Counted from the first letter of the stretch, positions 1,827-47,834 are shown. The stretch: DNA of 64,000 nucleotides from Treponemataceae bacterium (GCA_963678065.2 CAXXVZ010000003.1:2335562-2399561), one strand, 5' to 3'. Numbers and translations are program-made. The notes: generated by a model from the sequence alone, not told the origin.

Positions 1827-1886
1827 CCATTCCCTCCGTGGTGATCCAATCGTCCGTCTGAACCGAGTATACCCGAAAAAAAAAAT

Positions 1887-1910
1887 CCGGTCACCCCGAA
1901 GGATGACCGG
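1887..1910 (-). terminator. Rho-independent terminator after tRNA-Phe
   Basis: CCGGTCA...TGACCGG hairpin followed by a T-run on the minus strand. Confidence 0.8.
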
Positions 1911-1915
1911 AATCG

Positions 1916-1988
1916 TGCCGCCGATCAGAATTGAACTGATGACACATGGATTTTCAGTCCATTGCTCTACCAACTGAGCTACAGCGGC
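1916..1988 (-). tRNA. tRNA-Phe(GAA)
   Basis: GCCGCTGTAGCTCAGTTGGTAGAGCAATGGACTGAAAATCCATGTGTCATCAGTTCAATTCTGATCGGCGGCA folds as a cloverleaf with anticodon GAA. Confidence 0.97.
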
Positions 1989-2045
1989 TCGAATGAGGCC
2001 ATTTATACAGAAAGGTACAAGAAAGGTCAAGAGGGAGTGACAATT

Positions 2046-2618: not shown

Positions 2619-2676
2619 CGCTGCCCTCCTTCATGGCTCCGTTCATGTCGACACGCTATCCTGCTATAATATCGAG

Positions 2677-4914
2677 ATGAACTGCGTCATCGTCCAGCCC
2701 CCCTTCGTCCAGCTCAACACCGCCTATCCCGCCGCCTGGTACCTCGAGTCTTTCCTCCGCTCGCGCGGGCACAAGGCGGAGGCCTTCGACCACTCCATCG
2801 AAACCTTCCACTCGATTTTCTGCCGCGCGGGACTTGAACGCGTATTCGCGGACGCGGCTATCGCGTGGGATTCCATGTCGACGACGGCTGACGAAGCGAC
2901 GCGCAGTCAGGTCGAGCGCTACTTCTCGAGTCGCAGGCTCTACATCGACTGGATCGACGACATCATGGCCTTTCTCTCGGGCGCCGATCCCGGCTTCGCC
3001 CACAGACTCGCGTCTGCGGCCGAGCGGCCAACCGGCTTCAAAACCGAGAACTGGCTCGAATCCACCGGTGGCCGCCCCGGCCCGGAAGAAGCCCGCATCC
3101 TCGCGACCCGCATCCTGGAGGACATCGCCGACTTCATCTCCTACGTCCTCGACCCCGATTTCGGCACGGTCCGCTACGCGGACAGGCTCGCCTCGGGCAT
3201 AGCCGACTTCGGCGCCCTCGAGTCCCGCCTGGATTCTTCTTATATAATGGTAGAATTCTACCGTCCCCTCGTCCGCGCCTTTCTTGAAGCGCGGCCAGAG
3301 GTGGATATCTTCCTCGTCACCATTCCCTTCCCGGGCTGCCTCGCCGGCGCCCTCAGCCTCGCCCACGAGATCAGGCGTGCGCGTACAAGCCAGGCCCCCG
3401 TCCTCTTCGGCGGCGGCTACGTCTCGACAGAGCTCCGGAACCTCGCCGATCCCCGCATCTTCGATTACTGCGACTATCTCTGTTTCGACTCGGGCTACGG
3501 CGCCCTGGACTCCATCCTCCGTTTCCTCTCCGGTGGGGACTCAGGGGATCTGCGGCAGCTCATGTACCGCGACGCATCAGGACTCATCGTCCGTCGCGGC
3601 ATCGACGGCGGCTCGGAGGAGGATGCCGATCGCGCTGAAACCGCCGAGATGATAGCGACCACCTTCCCCGACTACTCGCACCTCGATTTCGGCCGCTACC
3701 TGCGCGTCGTCGACTCCGACAATCCCATGCACCGTCTCTGGTCCGACACGCCCTGGCTCAAATTCCATCTGGCCCACGGCTGCTACTGGCACCGCTGCGC
3801 CTTCTGTGACACGAACCTCGACTACGTCGCAAACTACATCCCCGCCGATATCGACACGCTCGTCGCCGCCTGCGCGAAATCCGCCGAGGCCACAGGCCTC
3901 TATGGCATCCATTTCGTCGACGAAGCCCTGCCCGTCGGAAAGCTCCTCGCCTTCGCCGAGGCCAACCGCCGCAGACAGAAGGAGGGCAAACGCCCCTTCC
4001 ATTTCTGGGGCAATGTCCGCTTCGACGCATCCTGGACAGCCGAACGCTGCGAGCTCCTCGCCTCCTCCGGCCTCGTCGCCGTATCCGGCGGCATCGAAAT
4101 CGCCAGCGAGCGCGGCCTCGCGATGACCGACAAGGGCTTCGACCTCGCCGGCCTCGTCCACTGTCTCGTCGGCATGAAGAGCGCCGGGCTCCTCGTCCAC
4201 GCCTACCTCATCTACGGCTTTCCCGCCCAGACCGAGCTTCAGATCGTCGAGTCGGCCGAGACAGTCAGGCAGGTATTCGCCTGCGGCCTCATCGACTCGG
4301 CCTTCTGGCACCGTTTCGTCCTCACCCGTCACTCCAGCATGTACAGAGAATGGGAAGCCGGCCTCATTCCCGGCCTTGAGCCGGAGGACGCTCCGCGCCT
4401 CTTCGCCGACAACGACCTCTCCTTCGCCGGTTCGGCCCGCTTCGACCGCTTCGACGATGCCGTCACGGCCTCCCTCGCCGCCTGGATGTCCGGTGAAAGC
4501 CTCGACCGGCCCATCTGGGAGTGGTTCCCTGGCTTCCCGAAGAAAGACCGCGCCCTCCTGCCCCACCCCGAACTCATAGAATCCCTCATCGAGGCGGCCC
4601 AGTCCGGCATCGAATCCTCGCTCTGTGCGGCCCCTCCGACCACATCGCGCGCCTACTGGACGGCCGGCCTCCCCATCTCCTCTGTCTCCGGCCGCAGCGC
4701 AGTTTCGGCAAGCGGCCTCTCCTGGACCCGCCGAGGTGCCACAGCCCATGCCCCCATGTCTGCCGACTCCGCCAGACGCATCGCCGCCGCTGTAGAGGAG
4801 CTCGCCGGGCGCCCCGAGGGCATGAATTCTGCGGACTTCCTCGCCTCAGCCTTTCCCAGCGACGACACGAAACTCCTCAACCTGCTGCGCGGCGATGGTC
4901 TTGTCTTTGTTTGA
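2677..4914 (+). CDS. B12-binding-domain radical SAM protein
   Basis: PPFVQLNTAYPA N-terminus and CYWHRCAFC (CxxxCxxC); TATAAT just upstream of the ATG at 2677. Confidence 0.85.
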   Translation: MNCVIVQPPFVQLNTAYPAAWYLESFLRSRGHKAEAFDHSIETFHSIFCRAGLERVFADAAIAWDSMSTTADEATRSQVERYFSSRRLYIDWIDDIMAFLSGADPGFAHRLASAAERPTGFKTENWLESTGGRPGPEEARILATRILEDIADFISYVLDPDFGTVRYADRLASGIADFGALESRLDSSYIMVEFYRPLVRAFLEARPEVDIFLVTIPFPGCLAGALSLAHEIRRARTSQAPVLFGGGYVSTELRNLADPRIFDYCDYLCFDSGYGALDSILRFLSGGDSGDLRQLMYRDASGLIVRRGIDGGSEEDADRAETAEMIATTFPDYSHLDFGRYLRVVDSDNPMHRLWSDTPWLKFHLAHGCYWHRCAFCDTNLDYVANYIPADIDTLVAACAKSAEATGLYGIHFVDEALPVGKLLAFAEANRRRQKEGKRPFHFWGNVRFDASWTAERCELLASSGLVAVSGGIEIASERGLAMTDKGFDLAGLVHCLVGMKSAGLLVHAYLIYGFPAQTELQIVESAETVRQVFACGLIDSAFWHRFVLTRHSSMYREWEAGLIPGLEPEDAPRLFADNDLSFAGSARFDRFDDAVTASLAAWMSGESLDRPIWEWFPGFPKKDRALLPHPELIESLIEAAQSGIESSLCAAPPTTSRAYWTAGLPISSVSGRSAVSASGLSWTRRGATAHAPMSADSARRIAAAVEELAGRPEGMNSADFLASAFPSDDTKLLNLLRGDGLVFV

Positions 4915-21701: not shown

Positions 21702-22026
21702 TTATTCCGTATTTGTGTGTGACATTTCTGCCAGGAGCTGCTTTACTCGTTCGATTGGGAGAGGAGCTGAGCCTTCAAAATGGTTGTTGACGTTCAGATA
21801 GACTTGCTTACCATGGTTCGAAAGCTCGTTGATCATGACAGCGATAGAAGGCAGTTGCGATTTGGGCTCGACAATCCGGTTCCATTCTTGCTGTGTGGCT
21901 TTCTCGATTTCCATCCGATCACCCCCGAGGAGCCGGATGACAACAAGACTGGATAACAGGTGACCGAACTTCCTGTATAAATCGACGATGTGTGGCATGT
22001 ACTGTTTTTCTGAAAAGACCATCAAG
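21702..22026 (-). pseudogene. DUF72-family C-terminal fragment
   Basis: VIRLLGGDR...VYLNVNNHFEGSAP; 5' part cut by the IS3 remnant. Confidence 0.6.
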
Positions 22027-22540
22027 TGGACTTGCCCGGGTTTCGTGGAGGCTTGGTTAAGCCACTCTCCTGAGCATCGCTGCGGGTGGCCTGAAGCCGT
22101 TTCGTGAGTGGATCCGAAGCCGATTGTAATACACCTCGATGTACTCGAACACTGCGGTCCTGACCTTCTTCCGGGTGGTTTTTCCGTCAAGCTCGGGGAG
22201 TTCCCTTTTCAGCGTCTTGAAAAAGGACTCCGCGCAGGTGTTGTCCCCAGCAGTTCCCCTTGCGGCTCATGCTCCTTACGAGTATCGGCATCGTCCCTAG
22301 GGAAGCCTCTCGAAAAGCATTGCAGCATTATTGGATGCCGGGGTCGGAATGGAACAACAGCGGGCCTTTGGGATTCTTCCTGTACACAGCCATCGCGAAG
22401 GCATCGATGACAATGGCCGCAGTCATGTCGGTCCTCATGGACCAGCCCACGACCATCCGTCAAACAGGTCTATGCCCACGCACAGGTAGAGCCAGCCATC
22501 GGTGGTCGGGATATACATTATGTCCAACACCCACACCGTA
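22027..22540 (-). mobile_element. degenerate IS3-family remnant
   Basis: Fragments [23 protein letters not shown] and VFEYIEVYYNRLRIHS; terminal ...GGGCAAGTCCA. Confidence 0.8.
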
Positions 22541-22723
22541 GTGGGCTCGGCGACGTCAAGGTATCATATCAAATGACTACATAGTATTTTCTACAGATAT
22601 ACTACGCACCCGTAAATAAATATTTTCATCGTTGACTTTTGATGAATACTCTGCAAATCATCTTATACGGATCAAGATAAATGCTGTTCGGCGGACGCTC
22701 TGCGCAGGGAAGGAAACGAATAA

Positions 22724-23179
22724 ATGAGAGATAAACGATTTATAGCAAATCATATGGGCGGTCCATTAAGTTTAGAAAGACATAGGTCATTGATTCATTG
22801 GGCTGTTGACTGTGTAAAACATGGAATTGAAATAGCAAATGAAAAGGATATTGACGAAAGAGCATTAAATGCTCTGGAAATTGCTGAAAAATGGGAAAAA
22901 GGAAATGCTACTGTTGGAGAAGCAAGAGAAGCAGCATTTGCAGCACATGATGCCGCAAGAGAATGTGAAGATAAGATTAAACAAGCATTAATGCGTGCCT
23001 GTGGTCATGCGGTAGCAACAGCTCATATGGCTGATCACTCATTGCAAGCCAGAAAATATGTATTAAAAGCAGTAAAGCTAACGAATAGGGAAATAGCAAA
23101 AGAAATGGAATGGCAAATACAAAGAGCAGATGTAAATATTAAAGAATTACTTATAGGAAATGGAAATGAATTATGCTAA
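22724..23179 (+). CDS. cassette gene: Imm5-like putative immunity protein (copy 1)
   Basis: MRDKRFIA..GGPL..HWAVDC..ACGHAVATAHMADH; AT-rich; followed by attC. Confidence 0.7.
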   Translation: MRDKRFIANHMGGPLSLERHRSLIHWAVDCVKHGIEIANEKDIDERALNALEIAEKWEKGNATVGEAREAAFAAHDAARECEDKIKQALMRACGHAVATAHMADHSLQARKYVLKAVKLTNREIAKEMEWQIQRADVNIKELLIGNGNELC

Positions 23180-23189
23180 AGAAGAAGAC

Positions 23190-23316
23190 GCCGAACAATC
23201 GCTTCAACCGGACAGCGCCTTTTGTCACGGTTTGTGCTACTCGCTTCGCTCGCTTGTGCACAAACCGCGCCAACCCGCTTCGCGGGACAGGCTTGCCGGT
23301 TAAGCCAATGTTGCAC
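23190..23316 (+). other. attC site 1
   Basis: R'' GCCGAAC, L'' CTTCAACC, L' GGTTAAG, R' GTTGCAC; imperfect palindrome of 127 bp. Confidence 0.88.
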
Positions 23317-23427
23317 TAAACCGCTGTGCCAGCGGTGGAGGATTTGCTTTCATTCCTACCTTTTGCGAGGTTCGGGCACATTCATAGACCACGGATACTT
23401 CTGGCATCATCACGCCGGAGGTATCCA

Positions 23428-24309
23428 ATGCACTACGAACTCGAACTCGAAGCCATGCGCAAAGCGCTGGTCATCCGCAACTACGCCACCAAGACCATCA
23501 GCACCTATGTCTCCGTCCTCAAGCGGTACCTTGAACAGCTTGACAAGCCGATCGCCTGTGTCACATCGGCCGACATCCAGGAGTGGCAGTATCATCTCGT
23601 CAATGAAGAAAAAGTATCTTGGTCTCTCTTCAACCAGATGGTCTGCGCCCTCAGGTTCTATTTCAAGAACGTGCGCACCTGCGATTTCACGGTCAAACAC
23701 ATTCCGTTCCAGCGCAGACGAAGGCGATTTCCGTCCATACTGTCCAAAGAAGAGGTAGCAGCTCTTCTGGAAACCGCGCGGCTGAATCCCAAGCACTATG
23801 CGATCATCGCCACGCTGTACTCCACCGGCCTGCGCCTTGGCGAATTGGTCAAGCTCCAGATACCCGACATCGACAGTACGATGATGCTCGTGCACGTCCG
23901 GCAAGGCAAAGGTGGCAAGGATCGGCATGTCCAGCTCAGTTCCCACCTCCTCGGGATATTGCGGGCCTATTATCGCTCGTGCCTCGTCAAGCCGAAAACC
24001 TGGCTCTTCCCGGGTGCCAAGAACGATGGCCCGCTGGATCCGAGTGGTATCCAGAGGATGGTTCCCGCTATCGCACGAAAAGCCGGAATCGAGAAGCATA
24101 TCTCGCCGCACACGCTCCGGCATTGCTTCGCAACCCACCTGCTCGAAGACCACACCGACCTGCGCACCATCCAGTCCATGCTCGGTCACAGCTCCATCCA
24201 GACGACGGAAGTGTACCTGCACGTGGCGACGCATCATCTCCAGAGTGTCCGCAACCCCCTCGACCATCTCCCGGCACCAGGTGTGCACTCCGCGGGAAAG
24301 CCCCGATGA
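23428..24309 (+). CDS. IntI-related tyrosine recombinase lacking the IntI-specific insertion
   Basis: RNYATKTISTY N-terminal domain, TGLRLGE, GKGGKDR, HTLRHCFATHLLE, LGHSSIQTTEVYLHV; short KDR-to-WLFP segment. Confidence 0.9.
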   Translation: MHYELELEAMRKALVIRNYATKTISTYVSVLKRYLEQLDKPIACVTSADIQEWQYHLVNEEKVSWSLFNQMVCALRFYFKNVRTCDFTVKHIPFQRRRRRFPSILSKEEVAALLETARLNPKHYAIIATLYSTGLRLGELVKLQIPDIDSTMMLVHVRQGKGGKDRHVQLSSHLLGILRAYYRSCLVKPKTWLFPGAKNDGPLDPSGIQRMVPAIARKAGIEKHISPHTLRHCFATHLLEDHTDLRTIQSMLGHSSIQTTEVYLHVATHHLQSVRNPLDHLPAPGVHSAGKPR

Positions 24310-25514
24310 GCGCACTAGGCGACATAGCGCGGCGGGGGATGGCGCTCTCCTGGCTCACCGGTCAGGAACGGAGCGTCCTCTCTCACATAGCCGACTGCAA
24401 GACGGAGCGACTCGGAGGGAATGTTCTTTCGTGCGAGTGCGGGCACCGCGAGGTTCACTACAATTCCTGTCGTGACCGGCATTGCCCGCTCTGCCAGGGT
24501 GCCGCGTGTGCGCGCTGGGTGCGCGCGCGCCTTGGCGAACTCTTACCCTGCGGGTACTTCCATGTGGTCTTCACGGTCCCCCACGAACTGCACTACCTTG
24601 CCCTTTCCAACCGCCACGCATTCTACCGGGCGCTCTTCCTCTCGGTCCACGAAACCCTTAAGGATGTCTGCGCCAATCCCGCCAACCTCGGTGCCCGCGT
24701 GGGCGGCATGTCCATCCTCCACACCTGGAACCAGAAGCTCGCTTTCCACCCGCACATCCATTGTATCGTACCCACAGGAGGTATTTCGTCCGACTTCTCG
24801 CGCTGGATAGCGGGGAACCCCACCTACCTCGTTTCGGTCAAGCGCCTGTCAGCGGTGTTTCGCGGCAAACTCCTGAGCCGTCTTGAGCAGTCCATCGGCA
24901 GACATGACCTGTGCGGCGACGAATCGGCGCTCCGCGATGCGGTGTGCGCTGCCGCTCGCAAGGACTTCGTCGTCTATGCCAAGCCACCCTTCGGTGGTCC
25001 CGGCCAGGTGGTCAAATACTTGGGCCGCTACACGCATCGCGTCGGCATCAGCGAACCCCGCATCGTCTGTGTCACTCAGGAGAGAGTGAGTTTTTCGTGG
25101 ATCGACCGCGCCGCGGGGCATGCGAGACGAGTGATGAGCCTGTCCTGTGACGAGTTCATCCGAAAGTTCACCCTGCACATCCTGCCCAAAGGACTGCGGA
25201 AGATCCGCTATTTCGGCTTCATGGGGAACCGGGACCGGACCGCTTCCCTTGTCCGCGTGCGTGCGCTCATCGCATCCTCGTCCGATTCACTCCCGAACCG
25301 GCCTGAAACCGACGAATTCCCGGCACACGGGAGCGCGATGGAGGCTCCCCGCGTCGAACCGTGCGCCGTTTCCCGCTGCCCGCGATGCGGACTGCCTCTG
25401 AGCATTCACCATCCGATCGGGGTGTCGTCATCGGGGTCGCACTGGCTCACATCGCGGCTTGCGTTCCTGCGGGAAGTCCATGGACCGGAACCGAACAGGG
25501 CGGTGTTTGCCTGA
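24306..25514 (+). CDS. IS91-family HUH (Y2) transposase with Zn-binding domain
   Basis: CECGH..YNSCRDRHCPLC, YFHVVFTVP, HPHIH (HUH), YLGRY, HILPKGLRKIRYFG; ATGA overlap with the recombinase gene. Confidence 0.92.
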   Translation: MSALGDIARRGMALSWLTGQERSVLSHIADCKTERLGGNVLSCECGHREVHYNSCRDRHCPLCQGAACARWVRARLGELLPCGYFHVVFTVPHELHYLALSNRHAFYRALFLSVHETLKDVCANPANLGARVGGMSILHTWNQKLAFHPHIHCIVPTGGISSDFSRWIAGNPTYLVSVKRLSAVFRGKLLSRLEQSIGRHDLCGDESALRDAVCAAARKDFVVYAKPPFGGPGQVVKYLGRYTHRVGISEPRIVCVTQERVSFSWIDRAAGHARRVMSLSCDEFIRKFTLHILPKGLRKIRYFGFMGNRDRTASLVRVRALIASSSDSLPNRPETDEFPAHGSAMEAPRVEPCAVSRCPRCGLPLSIHHPIGVSSSGSHWLTSRLAFLREVHGPEPNRAVFA

Positions 25515-25807
25515 ACGAGGGGTGTGACTCCTGAGTCCGAATTTCACCGAACATCCGCCCATTGTGCCTGTATTCCCTTCATCCCCTCACAATTCCCGGC
25601 AGGTAAAAACTGCTCTGAATACGGCATTGCCCATGATCACGCTTACGGATAAAAATCGTACTGCCGTGTACATGCCCGTTAATAAAAAAAATCGTCCCGT
25701 TACGCGCGTCTCCTCTCATTTCCCGCCTTGTAGTACCGAGAAACCCCGGATTGTTCTTCAATTTGATGTGAAGACTTGATACAGTACCCATAGGGGACGA
25801 CGGTTCA

Positions 25808-25917
25808 GTGCAACACGTTCTATCCTGCAGAATCGAATTCTCGGTGTGCCACCCTCCTTCAGTACATCGAGAGTCGGTTGTCGCGCGATTCCGCAGGATA
25901 GAATGCTAATGTTCGGC
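25808..25917 (+). other. atypical attC-like site closing the recombinase/IS91 unit
   Basis: GTGCAAC ... TTCTATCCTGCAGAATCG / CGATTCCGCAGGATAGAA stem ... GTTCGGC. Confidence 0.7.
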
Positions 25918-25948
25918 GGACGCTCTGCGCAGGGAAGGAAACGAATAA

Positions 25949-26404
25949 ATGAGAGATAAACGATTTATAGCAAATCATATGGGCGGTCCATTAAGTTTAG
26001 AAAGACATAGGTCATTGATTCATTGGGCTGTTGACTGTGTAAAACATGGAATTGAAATAGCAAATGAAAAGGATATTGACGAAAGAGCATTAAATGCTCT
26101 GGAAATTGCTGAAAAATGGGAAAAAGGAAATGCTACTGTTGGAGAAGCAAGAGAAGCAGCATTTGCAGCACATGATGCCGCAAGAGAATGTGAAGATAAG
26201 ATTAAACAAGCATTAATGCGTGCCTGTGGTCATGCGGTAGCAACAGCTCATATGGCTGATCACTCATTGCAAGCCAGAAAATATGTATTAAAAGCAGTAA
26301 AGCTAACGAATAGGGAAATAGCAAAAGAAATGGAATGGCAAATACAAAGAGCAGATGTAAATATTAAAGAATTACTTATAGGAAATGGAAATGAATTATG
26401 TTAA
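25949..26404 (+). CDS. cassette gene: Imm5-like putative immunity protein (copy 2)
   Basis: Protein identical to 22724-23179. Confidence 0.7.
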   Translation: MRDKRFIANHMGGPLSLERHRSLIHWAVDCVKHGIEIANEKDIDERALNALEIAEKWEKGNATVGEAREAAFAAHDAARECEDKIKQALMRACGHAVATAHMADHSLQARKYVLKAVKLTNREIAKEMEWQIQRADVNIKELLIGNGNELC

Positions 26405-26414
26405 AGAAGAAGAC

Positions 26415-26541
26415 TCCGAACAATCGCTTCAACCGGACAGCGCCTTTTGTCACGGTTTGTGCTACTCGCTTCGCTCGCTTGCGCACAAACCGCGCCAACC
26501 CGCTTCGCGGGACAGGCTTGCCGGTTAAGCAAATGTTAGGA
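26415..26541 (+). other. attC site 3
   Basis: TCCGAAC...GTTAGGA; near-identical to attC1. Confidence 0.88.
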
Positions 26542-27853
26542 TTATTAAAGATTGGTAGGTAAGAGATGAAGTTTCATATTATAGATTCTATTTCTGGTAT
26601 TGACAGAGATTCTGTAAACGAGTGTTTTTTAGTAGTTGATAACTGGGATGATTGGTTTGAATTTTCAACAATGTACCGGCTATATTTTGTAACAATCTCA
26701 AATACAATAAAAGAAATTGGCTTTGTAAAAATTGGCCAATTTTTAATGAAAGAGGGACAGCGTAGACCATTATTAAATAGGGATTTTGAAAATTTAGAAG
26801 ATAACTATTTTTCTGTTGGTCAAGATGAGAAATATTATGAAAACATTAGATCGCTTGATGAGCATTTTAGAATAGAGATATTAAGTATCTTAAATGATTT
26901 TGCATTTAGTAATGAGATGTTTCAAAAAGCACTTGGTGAAAAGGTTACAAGAGTATCGCTACTTAGGTCAGTTTCCGAAAAGACAATAAGTGAACAGTTT
27001 AGAAGAATCCTTCTTGGTGGTGCAGCACAGACTTCATTCAACTTTTCATATTCATCTCCAATGTATTTTAAAAATCCATCATCAAAAATTAATTTGACCT
27101 TTAACGTTAATCCTGATTCAAGTCCTCCATCAAATATTCATGTCCTAATTGGAAGGAATGGTGTAGGGAAAACAACTCTTTTATCTAATATGGCAAATGC
27201 TGCTTTAAATTCTGATGATGGAAAATATGGGAGCTTTTCATCATCAAGCACTGACGAAAGAGTATCACAATTTTCTGGATTGATTACTGTCTCATATAGC
27301 GCATTTGATGATTTCACTGTTTCAAAGGAGAAACGAGACAATACGAATTCTTTGAGATACTCATATATTGGATTAAAAGAAATTAAAAAGGTTAACGGTA
27401 TTGAAATAAGAAAGAATAAATCAATGGAATCAATTGACAGTGAATTCGCACGTAGTCTGTTTTCTTGTGTTTTTACAGTTAAGAAAGAAATATGGATAAG
27501 TATTATTGCAAAATTAAAATATGACCCTATATTTTCTGAAGCAAATGTTACTGAACTATCAAATTACTCAGATAAAGAAACTTTTAAAAAGAATGCAATA
27601 GTGTTATTTAAAAAATTAAGTTCTGGGCATAAGATAGTATTATTAACATTAACTAAATTAATAGAGTTAATTGAAGAAAAATCTTTAGTTTTAATTGATG
27701 AACCAGAAGCGCATTTGCACCCGCCACTATTGTCAGCATATATTAGAACGTTATCAGAGTTGTTAAAATACAAAAATGCAGTTGCGATTATAGCTACGCA
27801 TTCACCGATTATTTTGCAAGAAGTTGCTTCCGATTGCGCATGGGTGCTTTATA

Positions 27854-29580
27854 CCTGAATTCCCATGAATTTATACCCCAAGAGGAACGGGAACGTCTAA
27901 CTTCGTAAATAGCTCAGTTTGTTTCTTAGTGATTTCACCGATTTGAAGTCTACGACCAGGATGGCCAAAACATTCAATCACATCGAGTTCATCAAGAAGT
28001 TCGTGTAACGTATAGTCCTTATATAGATTCTGTTCATCCATCATCTTATCGATGTATGAGAGATACATAAGCGCGATGAATTGGACAAAGAGCTTGCCCT
28101 CGAGGTTTTCTTCTGAAGACACCGATGTTCTGCGCAGGTTAAGCCGCTCTTTGAGATTTCCGAAAGCCTTTTCAATCAGATCCTTAGATCGATAAATTCT
28201 AAGCGCTTCCAAAGGATCCTTTATGTCATTCGATATGAGAGCAAAATAGCCGTAGTTTTTTTCAGCTTCGTCGATTGAAGATTGAATTGGTGTTACCTGC
28301 ATGCCGCGAACAGGCGTTGCAGCGTACTCGAAATATTTCCGATAGAGCTTTTCATGTTCAGGATCAAGTTTTCCGGAATACAGTTCCGTTTCAAGCGTGT
28401 CTAAAAGGGTATTGAACGCAGCCTTATCATCCACTGCCCGTTGGTCATTGAAGAACAGATGGAGATACAGCCTCCTTGATCCTTCATCCAGATCCCCTGA
28501 ACGAGGTTTTCGATGATGGTATGACCATTCGATAGTCCGTGAGTATGTATTGATCCTGTACCGGCTTGAGTAACAGGCTCTCGTGCGCATAGACATTCGA
28601 ACATCATCAAGGACATCCTGAATCAACCGTAAGTGCTTTGGAACTGCTATCAGGAACTTATAGTGATGATGGTACAGGGTGTTGATATTCTCTTCGCTGT
28701 AGAACCCTCGATCCAAAACCAACTTGACTTTGCCCAGCTTGAGAAGATCAATGTCAGTAAGGAGCGTACGAATCGTCGTGACATCGGCGATGTTACCGGG
28801 CAATGTACGATAATAAACCGGTAGTCTTGAAGTATCACCGTAGAGCATCGCCAAATTGATTTGGGGTAAAGGATCATGATCCTTATTCCTGCCATAGCGA
28901 ACCTGGGAAAGCAGTCGAGAATACGAAGAAATAGAAGTGATATCGTAGGCAAGATATTCAGTCTCGAGTCTTCGATTTGCCTGCTTGAGAAAAAACCGTC
29001 GCCTGGCGTCCTCATCAATACAGGCGAATAACTCGCTGGACCTTTGGGAGGGTATCGAGTTCCCATAGGGGTGCGCATGATGTACAGCCCATCGCGGGAA
29101 ACGGCTTATGGAGTTCCTGTCTTCCAGAATCAAAAAGTATGCAATAGAGAGTATCTGTTTCCAGAGATCAGGAAAACAAACACAGAGATCACCAGTTATC
29201 CCCAGCTTTTCTCCGATTGCATCAAACAGATAGGTTGCTCCGAAAAAGTTTCGGGTATGAAGCACCGAAGAAACAGGGCCAGGAGAAATTGACGTTGCCC
29301 GCTCGAGTGCTTGCTGAAGTTGGTAGTTTTTAGTGGGAACAAAGATACCATCTACCATTTTCCCGATGTAGTGTCTTTTGTGCGTGTTGTAGTTCTTTTC
29401 AGCGATTCGCTTTGAATCATATTCGTAAACATATTCAACACCATGGATGACTTGTGTTCCTTGTGGCATACAATCCTCCATGGGGTATATATTATACCCC
29501 ATTTAGATTGCTGTCACCAATTATTTACTGTAATTACAATGCTTTATTGAATTGTGGGTATAAATTCCCGGGAATCCAGG
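27854..29580 (-). mobile_element. IS1634-family element
   Basis: 25-bp imperfect IRs CCTGAATTCCCATGAATTTATACCC; 6-bp TSD TTTATA. Confidence 0.92.
27871..29469 (-). CDS. IS1634-family transposase
   Basis: YDITSISSYS, GRNKDHDPLPQIN, LDRGFYSE, YRSKDLIEKAFGNLK. Confidence 0.9.
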   Translation of the reverse strand: MPQGTQVIHGVEYVYEYDSKRIAEKNYNTHKRHYIGKMVDGIFVPTKNYQLQQALERATSISPGPVSSVLHTRNFFGATYLFDAIGEKLGITGDLCVCFPDLWKQILSIAYFLILEDRNSISRFPRWAVHHAHPYGNSIPSQRSSELFACIDEDARRRFFLKQANRRLETEYLAYDITSISSYSRLLSQVRYGRNKDHDPLPQINLAMLYGDTSRLPVYYRTLPGNIADVTTIRTLLTDIDLLKLGKVKLVLDRGFYSEENINTLYHHHYKFLIAVPKHLRLIQDVLDDVRMSMRTRACYSSRYRINTYSRTIEWSYHHRKPRSGDLDEGSRRLYLHLFFNDQRAVDDKAAFNTLLDTLETELYSGKLDPEHEKLYRKYFEYAATPVRGMQVTPIQSSIDEAEKNYGYFALISNDIKDPLEALRIYRSKDLIEKAFGNLKERLNLRRTSVSSEENLEGKLFVQFIALMYLSYIDKMMDEQNLYKDYTLHELLDELDVIECFGHPGRRLQIGEITKKQTELFTKLDVPVPLGV

Positions 29581-29823
29581 TTTATAGATCAGGAACAAAT
29601 TGTAGCGTATCAAGACCAAATATAGAGAGTTTTGGTGAAAATGTTGGAATACTAACTCGAGAAGTATTTACACTTGAAATAACTAATACTGGATACCATA
29701 AATTACTGAATGATCTAATAAATGAAGGCTTAACAGAAGTAGATATCAATTCAAAATTTAAAAATAATATTAGCATTTCTGCCCGTGCATTAATAAAGAA
29801 TTTAATATTTGAAAGAGATAAAA

Positions 29824-30663
29824 ATGTATAAGATTGAGAATTATTACAATAACCAATCAGCAATATGTAACGATTGTTTAAAAAGTATTTCAAATATAGA
29901 TCTTAAAGAAAGATTTTCAAAAGCAATTCCAGCCATTATAGAAAGTTCGTATGCTTACAAAGAAGAAGCAGAAAATAAAAGACTGTACAAATATAAAGCA
30001 AATAATCTTGAAGTAAATGGAATTAAAGGAGATGAATTAATTTCATTATATAAACACAAAATGGTACCTCGTTCATCAACTGCAAGAATGCATTATGATC
30101 AAATAATGTTATCAGCAAATAATATGAAATGTCCTTATTGCGGTGTACGTACAGTAACTACCCTTGATCATTATCTTCCTAAAAGTGATTATCCTGATTT
30201 ATCTATCTTAGCAATTAACCTTATTCCATGTTGTAAAGACTGTAATTTTAATAAAAGAAGTAATATTCTTAGCGATATCTTACAAGCCTACTTGCATCCA
30301 TACTTCGAAGATGTTTCCCAAGTGGATTGGTTGTCTGTTGAGGTTTATGAAGAAGATCCTATAATTTTAATATATAATATTGACAAAAAAGTAATTAGTG
30401 ATACGATTCTATATGATCGTCTTATTTACGAGTTTAATGAGCTGCAGTTATTTAAGCTATACCAAGTATATGCAATAAATGAAATATCAGAGATGACTCA
30501 TTATTTTAAAGAAATAAAAGAAAAGCAAGGAGCAAAAGTTCTTTCAAAGTATTTATTAGAAATTTCTAATAGTATCAAGCTTCAAAAGACACATTGGAGA
30601 TATGCTTTGTATAAATCACTTAGTGATAGTAAATGGTTCTGTGAAATATATATAAAATCCTAA
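29824..30663 (+). CDS. HNH endonuclease (PtuB-like)
   Basis: CPYC..TLDHYLPK..NLIPCCKDCN..LHPYFE; coupled to the ATPase gene. Confidence 0.85.
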   Translation: MYKIENYYNNQSAICNDCLKSISNIDLKERFSKAIPAIIESSYAYKEEAENKRLYKYKANNLEVNGIKGDELISLYKHKMVPRSSTARMHYDQIMLSANNMKCPYCGVRTVTTLDHYLPKSDYPDLSILAINLIPCCKDCNFNKRSNILSDILQAYLHPYFEDVSQVDWLSVEVYEEDPIILIYNIDKKVISDTILYDRLIYEFNELQLFKLYQVYAINEISEMTHYFKEIKEKQGAKVLSKYLLEISNSIKLQKTHWRYALYKSLSDSKWFCEIYIKS

Positions 30664-30781
30664 CAAATGCTTCAACCTTATAAATCCTTTGGCATGGTTT
30701 GTGCTGAACAACAATGCACAAACCACGCCAATCCCTCGCTTCGCTCAGGAACGGGCGTTAAGGGTCAAGCCAATGTTAGGC
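30658..30781 (+). other. attC site 4
   Basis: TCCTAAC (complement of the cassette start GTTAGGA) ... CTTCAACC ... GGTCAAG ... GTTAGGC. Confidence 0.88.
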
Positions 30782-30811
30782 TGACGCTTCGCGCAAAATG
30801 AATAAATACTA

Positions 30812-32210
30812 GAGGCTTTTTCAAAACTTCGTAATCCGCTTTGTAAAAAAGCGAGTTATTGTAACTGAAGCTTCGTTTTTGCACAGTAAAAATTACATGT
30901 GCAGTAAAAAGGGCTCTCTTTTCAGTGCAAAAGATGGACTACGCCTACAAAACCCGGTTCTGTCGGATTACCAGGTTACAATTTCTGCAGTTCGGGAAGG
31001 ATGAAGTACTGCAAAGCCTTGATGGCCGCCAGAACCACTACCCCGCACATGAGCAGGAATGATACTTTCTCAAATCCCCGTACAAATATCTGACCCGGTA
31101 TGAGCCAATCCTTCAAATGCGAGTTTGCACGTTCAACCGTTGTCCTGATTGTGTACCGCTCCTTCTGTGACGGCGAAAATGGTTCCCGTTCCGTCCCACG
31201 ACGCGTATTCCGATCAATCAATCAGCGGAACACGCCCACGTCCCTGGATATAGGTCGCGATGGGATCCGCATCGTATGCAGCGTCCATGACTGAATACAG
31301 ATGTCGGACCTTTTTCTCTGTCATCTTTTCCAGAGGAATCGCTACTTGCGAATCATGAACATTGGCGCCGGTTACGACTGCTGAAATAGGGAATCCTGTA
31401 TCGCTGACATCAAGGTGCAACTTGTATCCTTTCCATGTTTCCCTATTCCCCTGGCTGTTCTTCTTGCATCCCCATGCACAGTTTTTTGATAGTTCTGACA
31501 AGGATTTCCTGACGCTTTGGCCGACTTGCTTTTCTATCTGTGTCGGCTCCTTCACAGGCCGAACTTCTCCTTTTCGGGGACGACCTCGTTTCCGTTGCGG
31601 TGTCACGGAAGAAACAGCTTCACGTTTGGCAGGTACAGGTTTTTCTCGTGCTCGTATCTCCGTCGCATCCCGATTTATGTGTCCGACGATATGGCCGTCA
31701 TGACAATCCTTCACCATGGTATTCAAAGTCTGAATCAGCGGAGTCTTTTTTGAAAACTCCGCGTAGCGACGCGAAAAGGTCGCAGAGCTTGGAACGGAGG
31801 TGAAGCCGCATATCCTCCGCAGATTCGGATCGTTGATCAGCCTGTTCCTAAGGTCCGTGACTGTCGCTATGTGGAATACCGTTCGGGCGAAAAACGCCCG
31901 CATGATCGGTTCGTTCCGATGTGGAGGACGGCCAGTCCGTGCACATGGTGATGTAATCCGTGGCTGAGCATCTTCAATGACTCTGAGCAGGGCGATAAAA
32001 AAGCGATGCTCGTCGGTGAGATATTCTTCGAAACATCGCTGGATATCGTAGGAAATCGGCAAAAGTATTTGCGCTCCGCCCAGTATTTCTGGTATGGTTT
32101 TCATCAGCGGGGGCTCCTCCTGGTGACGTTTGTGTTGCAACATCATCATACAGGTTCTGTCCCCGCTTTTCATTAAAATTCGTTCATCTCATGACTTTTG
32201 AAAGAGCCTC
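30812..32210 (-). mobile_element. IS5/IS1182-like DDE element with frameshifted transposase (about 30976-32104)
   Basis: IRs GAGGCTTTTTCAAAA / TTTTGAAAGAGCCTC; WKGYKLHL, HDSQ, MDAAYD motifs; a 4-bp tandem duplication near 31215 breaks the frame. Confidence 0.8.
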
Positions 32211-32295
32211 AGCAGAATTGTTAATGAAAAATGGAATGGAAGTACTTACTGAAGAAGAGAACTAAAGAGACTATATTTTTCTATAAGGGCTTACT

Positions 32296-32538
32296 ATGGG
32301 TATAGTAATAGCAATACTGGCTGGATTGACTGCGATGACGGCAATAGCAGCAGGCTTTGATTATTTGGGAAAAAGATCAAAGGGAATATCAGGGGATTTA
32401 GAAAAGAAGGTAGTTGAACTAGAGAATCGGATAAGTATTGTTGAGAGTACGGTAGCTGCAAAGGAAGATGAGATACGACAACTTGAACATAAGATAGAGT
32501 TTATGGACAGATTATTAGAGGACAAGACAAAGGAATAA
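32296..32538 (+). CDS. small membrane-anchored coiled-coil cassette protein
   Basis: TM helix plus heptads; ends just before attC5. Confidence 0.65.
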   Translation: MGIVIAILAGLTAMTAIAAGFDYLGKRSKGISGDLEKKVVELENRISIVESTVAAKEDEIRQLEHKIEFMDRLLEDKTKE

Positions 32539-32547
32539 AAAAGGAGC

Positions 32548-32663
32548 GTATAACAACCGCTTCGACCTGTCAAATCCTTTGGCACGCAACTTGCGGGAAC
32601 AACAATGCAAGTTGCGCGCCAAGCCCTTCGGGCACGGATTTGCAGGTCACGCGAATGTTATGC
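32548..32663 (+). other. attC site 5
   Basis: GTATAAC...CTTCGACC...GGTCACG...GTTATGC. Confidence 0.88.
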
Positions 32664-32770
32664 GGACCCTTCGGGCGCGATTCATTGTAAATATAGAAAT
32701 ACCTACAGTATTAGTTTTAATGTACTATGTTTATTGTGATTAGCTTATCTTTTATCCATTGAAGGAATAC

Positions 32771-34844
32771 ATGGTCTACAAAAAATTGCTAACTGGAATA
32801 GAAAAGTATGGTTCTGATAAGAATGATATATGTCGACAGTTTATTGGAGTAGACATTTGTAATATCTCTGAATCAGTAATAATTGCTCCTTGGTGGGAAC
32901 CAAAGGTATTTGATCCATTCTGGACTGATATAAAATATATGTGTGAATCTGAGTTTGCATCAATAAAAGTATGGAGTATGATAGTAAATAATAAGGTCGT
33001 TACATATATACGAACTGGAATTGGAGCTCCTGTATTAACGGATGTAGTTTTAGCTTTAGGAATTACAAATTGTCATAAGCTGGTATTTGTCGGTTCTGTT
33101 GGATCATTGGATGAGAAAATCGGTATTGGTGATATAGTGATTCCAGAGTATTCAATTTCGGGAGATGGAGTAAGTAGATATCTAAAAGGTAATAGACTCA
33201 AAGAAAATGATGTTTTTGGAGAAAAAGTATTTTCTGATAAAGTACTGTTTACAGAACTATGTCGAATCACAGAAAGAGTCACTACAAATAATGGAATTAA
33301 GTATCATATAGGATCTGCTTTTAGTATTGATACTATAATGGCTCTTCGCTGTTTCATGTGGGTAACTGCCCCAGTTTACCGGCGACAATGTAGGTCATGA
33401 TCTTGAGATTTTTGATAGTTCGGAATCCTCTGGCTCTGGTCTTTGCTGACTGAATCAGACTATTCAACGATTCAAGAAGCCCATTTGTCACTCCGGATGT
33501 AAGCCACCGAACGACTCCATTCCAGTGTCGTTTGAGCATCGCAGCAAAATTGATGATTGGGGTAAGCTGTGATCGTGTTGCCCATACTCTCCATTTTTTA
33601 AGTTCTTCTATGGCTCGAGAAGCCGAGAATTCGAAAAGTCCCTTGAAAATGTTCATCATTCGCCATGCTCGCCCTGTTTTTAACTGTAATCCTGACAAGG
33701 TGTTGAGACGGGCCAAATTCTTAACCGACAGATTGTAGGGGTTGCTCAACCAGACATATTTCGAACCTCTGAGTACCGTTTCCATCGTTGATTCTTCTTT
33801 CCGCACGTCGTTGACTGCTTCACCCAGAAGCTTCATGACATGAAACCGATCAAACGTGAGAGCAGCCTGGGGAAGATGCTCTTCGATCCCGGACATGAAC
33901 GCCGGCGACATATCGGTACAGACCGTCCGTGATAGCAGTTTTCGAGCCTCCATGGGCTTCCAGATGCTCTGTAAAGGCTTTTATAGTGGATGCATCCTTG
34001 CCTTCGGTCACATATATGGCTTTCCCTGTATCGAGATCGGCCACAACGGTGATGTATGAGTGTCCGCGTTTGGCTGCTGTTTCGTCGATTCCGATTCGTG
34101 TGGTTTTCGATAAATCTTGTGTAGCCACGTCTTCGGAAACATAATGGTCCATAATTCGCCACACTCGCGTATCGGTGGTAGCTGTCAGTCTGGAAACTGC
34201 CTTGACGCTCATTTCCTTGACCATGATCATCATGAGGGCTTCGTACAGCAGGGTAAATCCCGATCCTTTACGCGCCCACGGGATATCAATCAGATGAACG
34301 CCATGCTCAGGACAGTCTATCCGCGGAACTCGTGCATGCAGATAGGCTTCATGCTGGAAAAAATTGAGGTGACGCCATGTTTTGGGCATCGTATCGTAGG
34401 CTGTACCCTTGTAATCGCAGGAAAAACACGGGAAACGACTCCCGGGCTTGAACCCAAGCTGTATATCAAGCCGATGTTCTGTTGGTTTGAACTCTATGTT
34501 CTCAACAATCCAGGGTTCAGATAATCCAAGCGCAAGGGCGAATAGTTCTACGTCTTTCATGCTGCTCATCCTACCATGCTTCCTTGGTTACCCACACGAT
34601 TCGTCGAAGAGCCACTATAATTGATGAAATACTTGAAATGGGATGCAATGTAATCGAAATGGAGACTGCAGCAGCCTTTCGGGCTGCAGAGATAGCAGGT
34701 ATTTCAATGGCTGCTATATTTAGTGTATCTGATAATACAATTACGAAGAAGTCATTACTAAGTGGAAGAACTCAAGAAGAGATGGATTATCGGAGAAAGG
34801 TACGAAAAGGAATAATTCCTAAAATTATCTCAAAGATAATATAA
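32771..34844 (+). pseudogene. nucleoside phosphorylase (PNP/UDP family) cassette gene interrupted by ISL3
   Basis: TGIGAP, FVGSVGSL..IGDIVIP, then IEMETAA..SVSD after the IS; the halves rejoin in frame. Confidence 0.85.
33340..34613 (-). mobile_element. ISL3-family element, transposase frameshifted
   Basis: Ends GGCTCTTCG / CGAAGAGCC; 8-bp TSD ACTATAAT; WRHLNFFQH, IGIDE, DRFHV motifs. Confidence 0.92.
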
Positions 34845-34909
34845 TGTTTTATAATCACAAAAGCTATTGATAGAAAATATTATGCATAAAATATTTTTAA
34901 TTTGAAATC

Positions 34910-35012
34910 GCATAACACCCGCTTCAACCTTATAAATCCTGTTGTCACGCATTTTGCAGGAACAACAATGCAAAATGCGCGCCAATCCTTCGCTACGCTC
35001 AGGACGGATTTA
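34910..35012 (+). other. truncated attC site 6
   Basis: GCATAAC (complement of GTTATGC) plus L'' CTTCAACC and inner stem; L' and R' are missing. Confidence 0.8.
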
Positions 35013-35149
35013 TGGTGGACCCCGAAAACTGGGCAGCAGAGGAAAGTTGCTGTTCAATGATGAACGGGGGGAATCATGGGAGAACATCGCATCCGGAGTG
35101 TCAACGCCGATGATAAATTGCCTTTCCGGCAATTTATCATCGGCGACGA

Positions 35150-35276
35150 CATTCAGTACTTCTCCCAATAATCTCCTCAATTCCGTATAAAGCTTTTTCT
35201 TACGGTACTTTGGTATCCATACTATGTGGTATTTACACTCCCACTTCGTGTGATTTAAGCTCTGATACTCGTTCAT
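35150..35276 (-). pseudogene. tnpA: IS200/IS605 TnpA N-terminal fragment
   Basis: MNEYQSLNHTKWECKYHIVWIPKYRKKKLY. Confidence 0.85.
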
Positions 35277-35409
35277 GGAATCTCCTGTTCGTGTACTTTG
35301 GCGGTCTACGTCAGGAGATTCCTTTATAGTCCCGGAACTGGCAAACTTCCTGTGTCCACCAGCAGAGCTGGGGGTATACCCTTTCAATTATGTTGACTCC
35401 CGACGTCTT

Positions 35410-38981: not shown

Positions 38982-40125
38982 TCAGACCGATTGTACCATC
39001 TTCAGCAAAGACACAAGGCCATGTGTATCAAAATAGCTATTGGGGAGGGCTCTCTTCATGTGCTTGGCGCCTGCATTCCACCACGAACCTCGTCCATTAC
39101 GAGCCGAGCACTTCGCAGTTTTCTCATCTAGACCAAGATTCATGAGAGCGAGATAGCGACGCCTCGGGCGTTTCCACTGTATCCAGAATAGACATCGGAG
39201 CTTTCGTCGGATCCAACTATCGAGTTTCTTGAATATCTCTCTCACTCCGGACAGCGTATAATATTGCCCCCATCCACGCAGAATCGGCGAAATCGCTGCG
39301 ATTGTACGAGCCAGCGAACGGCCTCGGCCCATTCTGAAGACCGCTTGCAGGGTCGTCTCCAGTCGTTCCACGGATTTCTCCGCTGGCTTTAATCGAGGTT
39401 TCCGCTCGCTTGTCATCGAGTATCCGAGGTACTTGAGATTCCACGGCCTGTCAATCACGCTCTTCTCGACATTCACCCGCAGCTTTAACTTTTCGGCCAA
39501 AAACCGCGTGATTGATGCCATGCCCCTGATCCCCGCCTTTTCACTCGCGACATAGATGTTACAGTCGTCCGCATAGCGACAAAAGGCATGCCCTCTGATT
39601 TCCAGTTCCTTGTCCAGATCATCGAGCATGATGTTTGACAGTAGAGGCGATAACGGACTCCCTTGCGGTGTCCCTTCCGTTTTCGCTGTTCCCATCCCGT
39701 CCACCATAATTCCTGCCTGGAGACACTGCCGAACCAGCTTCAATAGCCTCTTGTCCGATATTTTCCGCGCAATCCGCGCCATAAAGACATCATGCGAAAC
39801 CCGGTCGAAAAATTTCTCCAAATCGATGTCCACAACCCAGCGCCGCCCCTCTGCCACATAGTCTCGCGCCTTCTTCACCGCGTCGTGCGTGCTCCGACCG
39901 CGCCGGAACCCATAGCTATGCGGTGAGAAAACTCGGGGTCGAAGATCGGTTCGAGTGCCTGATGTATAGCCTGCTGGATGAGTCGATCCATGACCGTCGG
40001 TATGCCGAGTTGCCTCTTCCCTCCGTTCGGTTTTGGTATCTCTACCTTGCGAACCGCCCCAGGCTTGTATTCGCCTTCCAGGAGTTCTCCCTTGATGCGC
40101 GTCCAGTGTGTTTTGAGATAGCACC
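38982..40125 (-). pseudogene. ltrA: group II intron reverse transcriptase/maturase, 5'-truncated and frameshifted
   Basis: KRQLGIPTVMDRLIQQA, SYGFR, DLEKFFD, GTPQGSPLSPLL, RYADD; frameshift near 39925. Confidence 0.9.
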
Positions 40126-40129
40126 CAAG

Positions 40130-40330
40130 GTCTAGGAACTGATCACGATACGAGTTCATTTGCCGTTGCATCTATCCGGGGATGGTGGAGCCATGAAGGG
40201 AAACACCTGTACAGCAATGCCCGATACCTGGTCATAACCGCTGACAGCGGTGGCAGCAATGGATACCGTATCAGGCGATGGAAGTTCGAACTTCAGAAAC
40301 TTACGGATAAACTAGGAAATGGAACTATAC
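40130..40330 (+). pseudogene. ISAzo13-family transposase fragment
   Basis: HDTSSFAVASIRGWW...LVITADSGGSNGYRIRRWKFELQKL. Confidence 0.8.
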
Positions 40331-40410
40331 GATCAAGCCACGATAGTAGTATCGTATACGTTATTTTTTGACGAAGCCTTAGGATATACAAAGCCACGCC
40401 TACACGAGGG

Positions 40411-41784
40411 TCAGATCGTAGCCAACGCCGAGGTCGCCTGCCTCCATAGCTCCCAGAACGGGAAGGAGCGCGGCAGGCGCACGAGGATCCGCCGGGTCGA
40501 CACGATGACCGATGCGGCGACCTTCAGGAGATGGATCCGTATCGTCGAGGACTGGGACCGGGCATGATCGGTGCCGGCGAGTCCGACACGCCGGAGTTCG
40601 CACAGGAAGACGTAGGCGATGGACGAGAACCAGAGCCTGAGCTGGTTGGCTCGGAACATGTGCGAACTGGTACGATCAGCGAAGAGGAAGAGCTGCTGTT
40701 CTTTGATGCGGTTCTCCATCTCGCCACGGGCGCAGTAGAGATCCTCGTAGAGCTCCCGGGCAGGCCAGGTTCCGGGATCGAGGTTGGTGACGACAAAGCG
40801 GGGGTTTGAACCCTTGGAAAGATGCTCCGCCTTGGCGACCACCCGGCGCTCGCAGGCCCAGGTTTTCCGCGTCTCGTAACGCAGCTCCTTGAAGATGCGG
40901 GAGGCATGACCGGTCAAGCCATGGAGCTCGGCCGCGTCGTGGAGTTCCTTGCCGATGGCTCGTTGGAGCCGGCCGTTGCGGGCGAGCCCCAAAATAGAGA
41001 ACGTCGCGTCATGCGATTCACAGAAGGCCATGAGTGGATCGCGACAGAATCCCGAGTCGCCTCTGACGACGATACGGGTTTGTGGCCAGCGCGAGCGGAT
41101 GCGCTCGTGGAGGAACGCCATGAGCTCGACCACACCCCCTGCGCCGTCCTGATCAGCGGGCCTGAGGATCGCGGCAAGCAGGTGATGTCCCGAGAAGGCG
41201 TAGAGGGGGAGAAAACAGTATTCATCGTAGAAGCCGTGGAAGAAGCGGCCCTCTTGATCACCGTGGAGGGGGTCGTCGGTGGCGTCGAAATCGATGACGA
41301 TCTCGTCGGGCGCGATGGCATAGGAATCCAGGAAGGCATCGACGAAGAACTCCCTGATCTTTCCCTCGTCCCACTCGATGCGCTTGTAGCGATCCGTTTC
41401 GCTGGACTTCCCTCTCCCCAGTTCGAGCCGGTTCAAGGTGCTCTTACCGGCCAGCGGATCGGCGTCGCTATCGCGGCCGCAGACGATGCCGAGCAGGGGA
41501 TCGGTACGCCACAGGTCGTGGTCGTTAAGATCCTCATAGCCCTGACACAGGCCATAGACCCTCTGCGCGAGCAGATCCTTGATCGGATGCGTGATCAGAT
41601 CCTGACGGCGATGATCAAGAAAACAACGAGAAAATGAATCGAGGAACCCGCGGCGTCGCTCGATCTCCGCCAGCAGCAGAAGTCCCCCGTCGCTCGAACT
41701 GTCCCGATCATCCCTGGCGACCTCCACATGCCGTCGCCGCCCGCCTTGAATCCCAAGCTCGAATTGGATACAGTCTGTATTCAT
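40411..41784 (-). CDS. IS1380-family transposase
   Basis: SSDGGLLLL, GYEDLNDH, DFDATDDPLHGDQEG, RGDSGF, YCARGEMENRIKEQ; IS1380-like end at about 41863-41878. Confidence 0.92.
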   Translation of the reverse strand: MNTDCIQFELGIQGGRRRHVEVARDDRDSSSDGGLLLLAEIERRRGFLDSFSRCFLDHRRQDLITHPIKDLLAQRVYGLCQGYEDLNDHDLWRTDPLLGIVCGRDSDADPLAGKSTLNRLELGRGKSSETDRYKRIEWDEGKIREFFVDAFLDSYAIAPDEIVIDFDATDDPLHGDQEGRFFHGFYDEYCFLPLYAFSGHHLLAAILRPADQDGAGGVVELMAFLHERIRSRWPQTRIVVRGDSGFCRDPLMAFCESHDATFSILGLARNGRLQRAIGKELHDAAELHGLTGHASRIFKELRYETRKTWACERRVVAKAEHLSKGSNPRFVVTNLDPGTWPARELYEDLYCARGEMENRIKEQQLFLFADRTSSHMFRANQLRLWFSSIAYVFLCELRRVGLAGTDHARSQSSTIRIHLLKVAASVIVSTRRILVRLPRSFPFWELWRQATSALATI

Positions 41785-47761: not shown

Positions 47762-47834
47762 TGAGCCGCACAAGATTCGAACTTGTGACCCACGCCTTAA
47801 AAGGGCGTTGCTCTACCTACTGAGCTAGCGGCCC
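47762..47834 (-). tRNA. tRNA-Lys(TTT)
   Basis: GGGCCGCTAGCTCAGTAGGTAGAGCAACGCCCTTTTAAGGCGTGGGTCACAAGTTCGAATCTTGTGCGGCTCA. Confidence 0.97.

Follow-up and report, generated by a model that had tools for sequence, protein, structure and literature searches.

What places a 2.6-kb element encoding both a tyrosine recombinase and an IS91-family HUH transposase exactly at the crossover of an integron attC site, and which of its two enzymes carries out which step? The question is raised by 64,000 nt of a Treponemataceae bacterium (GCA_963678065.2, CAXXVZ010000003.1:2335562-2399561), the whole of which is called the window here and is numbered from its first nucleotide. An earlier note, made from the sequence alone, had proposed that the element is a self-mobilizing gene cassette combining an IntI-like recombinase (IntI is the integron integrase) with a rolling-circle transposase. 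It is well supported that the element represents a lineage that homes to attC/attI sites, within an IS91 subgroup that is known but lacks an explanation. The analysis also leans toward a two-enzyme route, in which the HUH transposase copies out a single-stranded circle and the element's own recombinase inserts the folded circle. The parts of the element and its target are:

23311..25911, + strand: IS91-family element with a tyrosine recombinase (ISAzo26-type), 2,601 bp, one of three copies with identical ends
23190..23316, + strand: attC of the upstream gene cassette A1, the target, with its crossover at G23310|T23311 and 5/5 spacers
23311..23323, + strand: left arm A', a widespread motif and predicted recombinase arm that pairs with box A in the circle
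23320..23336, + strand: small subterminal palindrome, putatively terIS-like from its sequence, retained in the 188-bp mini-element L085
23428..24309, + strand: tyrosine recombinase, 293 amino acids (PF00589 and PF13495), catalytic R-K-H-R-H-Y intact
24306..25514, + strand: IS91-family Y2 HUH transposase, 402 amino acids (PF04986 and PF14319, NF033538)
25787..25793, + strand: CCCATAG motif, a candidate oriIS-like transposase binding site, retained in mini-element L085
25801..25814, + strand: box A, complementary to the left end
25818..25903, + strand: terminal hairpin B/B' with 18-bp arms and a variable loop
25904..25911, + strand: end spacer, 4 nt longer than in attC, forming the bulge in the folded circle, with G|TT at its end

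The boundaries given in the earlier note hold: the element runs from G|TT to G|TT (23311-25911) between the attC (23190-23316) and the next cassette, and neither the junctions of the host copies nor those of the lineage contain a short target duplication. Both genes are intact and translationally coupled through an ATGA overlap, as the note had stated, and its claim that the unit is autonomous is supported. In particular, the catalytic residues R135, H227, R230, H253 and Y262 of the recombinase are invariant across 98 homologues, with K160 retained in at least 90% of them, while the transposase scores 361 bits against NF033538 (cut-off 125) and contains the zinc domain, HPH and YLGRY. The ratio of nonsynonymous to synonymous substitution rates (dN/dS) is 0.12 for the recombinase and 0.08-0.18 for the transposase, where the recombinase value and the 0.18 come from copies about 73% identical in DNA; these low ratios indicate that both genes are under purifying selection. 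A genome search finds three copies with the same ends. The other two lie on the minus strand of contig C3 (C3:854383 and C3:866928), are identical to each other, and differ from the window copy by 21 substitutions and one 6-nt indel. The left-end 14-mer, allowing at most one mismatch, occurs 6 times in 10.5 Mb of both strands, a number equal to that of the ends of the three copies. The element has the G+C content of the genome (0.59), compared to 0.42 for the neighboring cassette, and its junction with the attC is spanned (23276-23805) by a contig from one public run, which is possibly the source sample.

Across the host genome and three related genomes, G|TT junctions are found at 11/11 left and 11/11 right ends, with the related genomes contributing 8 of each; the four genomes are kin of one family and are counted as one lineage. 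The 11 left flanks include nine attC sites (eight recognized by a scripted test and one, L249, judged by eye), one degenerate attC (L007) and one attI, and the scripted test is positive for 8/10 lineage left flanks, compared to 39/865 control GTT sites. Of the host copies, one is preceded by an attC and another by a site that shares 84% identity over 37 nt with the attI of the host integron. The first 12 bases of the element are invariant across the 11 junctions. Because TGTT is common to both junctions in this lineage, an IntI-type cut (G|TT) and an IS91-type cut (|GTT) are indistinguishable here. These junctions alone are therefore compatible with ordinary IS91 transposition, where the HUH enzyme would act by itself on a GTTN target, attC would offer a single-stranded GTT, and the recombinase would be a helper like Orf121. 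PMC13181058 describes CTTG, GTTC and GTCC as targets of the IS91 family, without duplication.

Multi-copy relatives on plasmids provide the evidence that separates the two cuts. Nine plasmid records were taken, and three families with variable ends were counted (14 copies on three IntI-free plasmids), leaving out families with TT at nearly all junctions or with an interrupted end. The left/right dinucleotides are TT/CT, CT/TC, TC/TT and TT/CT in Mesorhizobium, where three of the four copies are identical inside; AT/CA, AT/GA, GA/GA, AT/GT and TT/AT in Microvirga; and GT/AA, AA/GG, AA/GA, AA/AA and CC/CC in Caballeronia. Within a family, every copy ends in the same base (A in 4/4 Mesorhizobium copies), whereas the base before the left dinucleotide varies in Mesorhizobium (A, C, G, A), and the insertion point is therefore N|NN. 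Further, three other plasmids contain an empty site, from which it follows that the right junction receives the dinucleotide of the target and that the left dinucleotide is element-borne, and one Mesorhizobium target forms a perfect 32-bp palindrome only when the left dinucleotide is excluded from it. In the empty-site searches, the second Caballeronia hit turned out to be a filled site.

The left and right dinucleotides are unlike in 11/14 copies, which excludes a target duplication. Moreover, 7/9 distinct values of the left dinucleotide recur in the right flank of a copy on the same plasmid (P ~2e-4), or 5/7 when TT and a self-match are left out (P ~2e-3), with both P values assuming uniform draws from copies that are not independent. 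As the left dinucleotide is element-borne yet matches the right flank of another copy, the donor circle was closed two bases to the right of the insertion point, and head-to-tail tandems (L225/L229 and L232) show the joint predicted from this closure. That the circle is joined at one point and inserted at another speaks against plain IS91 transposition, and favors HUH copy-out followed by recombinase paste-in. A single HUH breakpoint would fix the first element bases, which vary in the relatives; their crossover, in contrast to that of the IS91 family, lies after the first base and not before a tetranucleotide, with the circle joint two bases to its right. Transposition by the HUH enzyme alone, which also leaves the long folded site and the intact catalytic recombinase unexplained, is very improbable.

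Tyrosine recombinases cut at the edge of an AA-N6-TT-type site. Since the insertion point lies at this edge, the recombinase is taken to carry out insertion and the HUH enzyme to form the circle. The division of labor put forward in the earlier note receives indirect evidence from the two-base offset in the relatives. According to the two-enzyme route, the transposase would nick two bases outside the right end and terminate two bases inside the left end, and the circle would thus include the two bases that directly follow the donor copy on its right; by analogy with IS91, copy-out would use the bottom strand. Folding calculations predict that box A pairs with the left arm in the circle and B pairs with B', creating two arms with a 6-nt register and a 4-nt bulge, and that the right junction is out of register in the integrated duplex. 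One strand exchange would then take place at N|NN, the position of IntI's G|TT, presumably by the element's recombinase, and replication would resolve the junction, as for cassettes. This lineage would behave like its distant relatives.

The offset may also be read in another way. The recombinase could both excise and insert the element by cutting two bases apart, while the HUH enzyme would only amplify the circle from an internal CCCATAG origin, as in CTX-phage replication. The carried dinucleotide does behave as a coupling sequence, the conserved CCCATAG motif is internal, tandem copies exist, and the Tn1549 integrase is among the fold matches of the recombinase. Coupling sequences are a feature of Tn916-type integrases, where they are longer than two bases. 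Known tyrosine recombinases use staggers of 6-8 nt, and 2 nt is far below this range. The AA-N6-TT spacing of the arms, in the targets and in the internal site, and the terIS-like palindrome at the left end are further points against an excising recombinase, and this alternative is unlikely.

The structure of the element's own site differs between its two forms. The right end is ordered as box A, 6 nt, arm B, loop, arm B', 10 nt and TT, where the 6-nt register is present only on the left side of the site and the right side has four additional bases; by eye, the same layout with 4-5 extra bases recurs in most of 22 right ends from metagenome relatives. When the ends are joined as in the circle, the predicted fold of the joint is a single long hairpin in which 4 nt bulge out (-33.1 kcal/mol for the bottom strand and -33.9 kcal/mol for the top strand), compared to -21.6 kcal/mol (bottom) and -22.8 kcal/mol (top) for the integrated form. 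The attC-like end described in the earlier note is therefore only partly confirmed: the element does end in a hairpin, but its spacers are 5/9 rather than 5/5 and its L''/L' stem lacks an extra base, unlike a canonical attC. Similarly, the left end matches box A at 13/14 positions (23310-23323 versus 25801-25814), as that note reported, but this pairing is longer than the R'/R'' pairing of cassettes and not the same, as the latter reaches only 8-10/14 in the host (10 integron cassettes and the neighboring cassette). A CCCATAG-type motif lies at most 40 nt upstream of box A in 38/49 right ends, a count made without a shuffle control. Pairing between the last element base and box A was tried as a crossover test and was dropped, as it fits L062, L097 and L023 and fails for L021, L058, ISAzo26 and the Mesorhizobium copies.

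Two non-autonomous relatives delimit these parts. In L085 (188 bp), nothing is left but the left arm with its palindrome, the CCCATAG-type motif, box A and the hairpin. L069 (about 860 bp) has the same ends intact around an unrelated passenger open reading frame of 186 amino acids on the opposite strand. From their sequences, the retained parts look like the requirements in cis.

Whether the recombinase is an IntI, as the earlier note had suggested, can be answered in the negative. It scores 205 bits against TIGR02249, below the cut-off of 265, and lacks the IntI-specific insertion: positions 177-236 of the model are unmatched, and a gap lies opposite residues 178-244 of 2a3v. Its best sequence match in the PDB is nevertheless an IntI, Vibrio IntI4 (2a3v, E 2e-37), and a structure model with a predicted local distance difference test score (pLDDT) of 91 matches XerA and IntI4, which are its best solved relatives by sequence and fold; a model from the single sequence had a pLDDT of 45 and was unusable. 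A 37-protein tree gathers the 28 element recombinases to one side of a branch (81/97, unstarred) and separates them from three IntI proteins (100/100), placing them outside the IntI clade, though the tree has few outgroups, places one long-branch phage integrase among the element proteins, and does not show which group is the sister of IntI. The recombinase is not an IntI, yet it would act in IntI's position.

This outcome raises the question of whether the host's own integrase inserts the element, with the HUH enzyme making the circle and the element's recombinase being dispensable or auxiliary. The host IntI is intact (C3:96956-98140, 450 bits, 394 amino acids), insertion into attI and attC is IntI activity, and an IntI lies beside arrays in two of the three related genomes. 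However, the element's end site departs from the geometry of the host attC hits, where 16/22 hits with both boxes have 5/5 spacers and the 6-nt register on both sides, and the recombinase's dN/dS of 0.12 also speaks against this reading. In addition, no IntI was found in related genome G415 (98% complete), which carries the element, and relatives multiply at non-GTT sites on IntI-free plasmids. No IntI was detected on the five plasmids tested that carry multi-copy relatives, in a search covering the plasmids and not the chromosomes, with the same model that detected IntI in the host and related genomes. Four of these five plasmids come from alpha-proteobacteria, which PMC4889954 reports as integron-free in 243 genomes. 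Insertion by host IntI in this lineage is unlikely; together with the excising recombinase, it is the main alternative to the two-enzyme route.

The wider family extends far beyond this lineage. The transposase is found in 18/400 other genomes of the phylum and in 5/400 of the order, its relatives occur in 392 plasmid records, and the left-end motif of one subfamily is estimated to be present in about 11,000 metagenome stretches. The recombinase lies downstream of 40/48 left ends with enough DNA, and both genes are present in 24/29. The earlier note had asked whether homologues have their boundaries at the GTT of attC or attI, which is the case throughout this lineage and not for most of the wider family, where 7/107 relatives' flanks are positive by the attC test, compared to 39/865 controls. 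A reversed test finds 10/107, with the control applying to the forward test only. The test is crude, and the 107 flanks represent a single motif-defined subfamily, sampled from 1 of the collection's 64 parts by a search pattern that forces TT. Because the rate in relatives is close to that of the control, attC/attI homing is a lineage trait, and other lineages of the family use other palindromic sites. The base preceding TT is G in 79, A in 31, C in 13 and T in 2 of 125, and the non-G targets tend toward CGCATAA-N6. Rhizobial copies occupy palindromes that adjoin other recombinase genes, or ends resembling those of an insertion sequence (IS). One relative (L222, positions 1564-4430 of a Vibrio campbellii plasmid) occupies the first position before an arr rifampin-resistance cassette with an attC, and no IntI was found in the 6 kb shown around it.

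Several of the relatives' targets read CATAA-N6-TTATG, a putatively Xer-like layout, and Xer enzymes are present in the host. Integration of the folded circle by host XerC/XerD, as for CTX phage, would account for such sites. The targets, however, vary by lineage (attC, palindromes near other recombinase genes, and IS ends) instead of being one dif site, and the element retains a recombinase of its own, making XerC/XerD the least probable agents considered here, with hardly any likelihood.

Several points weigh against the two-enzyme route itself. IntI acts on folded attC by means of an insertion that is missing from the element's recombinase, and the host's own IntI is intact. The oriIS-like motif is not at the right end but about 120 nt internal to it. 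The evidence for two breakpoints comes from distant relatives (about 45% transposase identity), while TT is invariant in this lineage. By copy, 11/14 left dinucleotides are matched by another copy, two are unmatched and one has only a self-match, and the interdependence of copies and the restriction of the IntI search to plasmids, both described above, add to these points. Only one of six sites searched yielded an empty site, with none for L190, L197, L186, L230 and L194, and no end-to-start circle joint was found in four contig sets, in which rare forms are dropped.

The element belongs to a catalogued subgroup, as it shares its ends and gene pair with ISAzo26-type IS91 elements. These have the recombinase directly upstream of the transposase, and the annotated ISAzo26 copy has the same left-end motif and the box A/hairpin right end, matching the search motifs with 0 mismatches; it sits in a non-attC palindrome, in contrast to the attC/attI sites of the present lineage. 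ISShvi3 is another ISAzo26-type member, and so is ISSod25, for which Romine and colleagues in 2008 reportedly linked integrases to attC sites. The position of ISShvi3 beside an attC has been noted as a new cassette structure (PMC9229058). Full-text literature searches, run without subscription journals and the ISfinder/TnPedia pages, found no mechanism, end structure, target rule or recombinase role for the recombinase and IS91 pair, and the accessible parts of PMC7923331, PMC5001619, PMC11023631 and PMC9345347 do not describe the element. The gene pair is thus already catalogued, and the two-enzyme mechanism is likely undescribed.

The element shares the Y2 HUH family, the lack of a short target duplication and the subterminal palindromes with canonical IS91, IS801 and IS1294, but has an additional catalytic recombinase and structured targets. 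A single-stranded circle model for the IS91 family is given in PMC13181058. With integron cassettes and IntI it has in common the G|TT crossover at attC/attI and a left half in the R''-5 nt-L'' register, while its site differs by the 4-nt bulge and by outer pairing at 13/14 positions, and the unit encodes its own enzymes. In CTX phage and IMEX, a HUH-made single strand folds into a tyrosine-recombinase substrate, which undergoes one strand exchange followed by replication. The proposed route resembles theirs, but CTX uses host XerCD and dif, whereas the element has its own recombinase and no phage genes. Both systems are named in PMC9345347. Other attC-targeting elements include IS1111-attC and group IIC-attC introns (PMC9229058), which also home to attC, though with a different chemistry, and interrupt it; the present element, unlike these, enters at the crossover, oriented as a cassette would be, and the result is a cassette-like unit.

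If the two-enzyme model is true, the 2.6-kb element couples 5'-phosphotyrosine copy-out to 3'-phosphotyrosine paste-in, joining two known mobility systems; its recombinases would form a second family of enzymes able to recombine folded single strands, and the element would be a third kind of integron-homing element. The model would also bear on the origin of IntI and on change in arrays without intI. Although the gene pair is very common, the literature searched gave no role for its recombinase. If the model is true, the carried dinucleotide also offers a natural barcode for tracing donors to daughters. More broadly, these elements could be autonomous self-integrating cassettes whose recombinases form a large family acting on single-strand hairpins without the IntI insertion, of the kind ancestral to IntI, inserting non-autonomous cargo and acting on attC arrays without IntI; this extension is speculative and rather unlikely. 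The shuffling of arrays, which the earlier note had considered, is without evidence here.

The array around the element has the following features.

22655..22692, + strand: first array site, attI-like and without an attC hairpin; cassette A1 begins at its G|TT (22686/22687)
22687..23310, + strand: gene cassette A1, with an Imm5-like gene (22724-23179), duplicated as A2
25912..26535, + strand: cassette A2, the second Imm5-like copy, with its attC (26415-26541)

The first array site resembles the host attI by eye only, as blastn gives no significant match. The bottom strand of the A1 attC folds at -36.5 kcal/mol (z -4.5). The earlier note overlooked that the 624-bp upstream cassette (22687-23310) is repeated downstream (25912-26535) with 4 mismatches. 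All four (4/4) lie in the last 135 bp, comprising the stop region and the attC, with 0 in the first 490 bp, a sequence pattern hinting at an exchange of the attC. The duplication would most simply be explained by an IntI-type event in which the second cassette was copied to the first position of the array.

The host IntI, which carries an N-terminal extension of about 75 amino acids, and its cassettes are codirectionally transcribed. Another host recombinase (C5:931895-933076) has a similar-looking extension and lacks the IntI insertion. Both IntI-less arrays start beside a divergent gene that appears DUF72-like by eye (window 21702-22190 and C3:867476-868279), followed in the latter case by genes resembling a Y-family polymerase and DnaE2. 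The window's array lies to the left of a tRNA-Lys (47762-47834) and an integrase, giving it an island-like appearance. Its cassette at 26566-30663 carries an AAA ATPase gene with weak retron PtuA-like hits and a probable HNH nuclease gene, has the appearance of a Septu-type defense pair, and is broken by a DDE transposase. The array is full of other mobile elements (27871-35387 and 38982-41784), including several IS, one of them at an attC near 34913-35030, and a group II intron reverse transcriptase.

Among the relatives, a 4,862-bp plasmid carrying both genes was considered as a dimer of the element and is not one. One subfamily on rhizobial plasmids (L177-L199 and L224-L243) occupies GGA|TTCC-type sites near the ends of other IS; these sites carry GAATC...GATTC repeats about 20 bp apart, and in several of the copies another IS was later inserted into the left arm. 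On a Microvirga plasmid, four copies at four different sites (L213-L216) have a 1.6-kb IS110-like insertion in box A. At L060, two inverted left ends surround a short perfect hairpin, as if two copies had entered both arms of one site.

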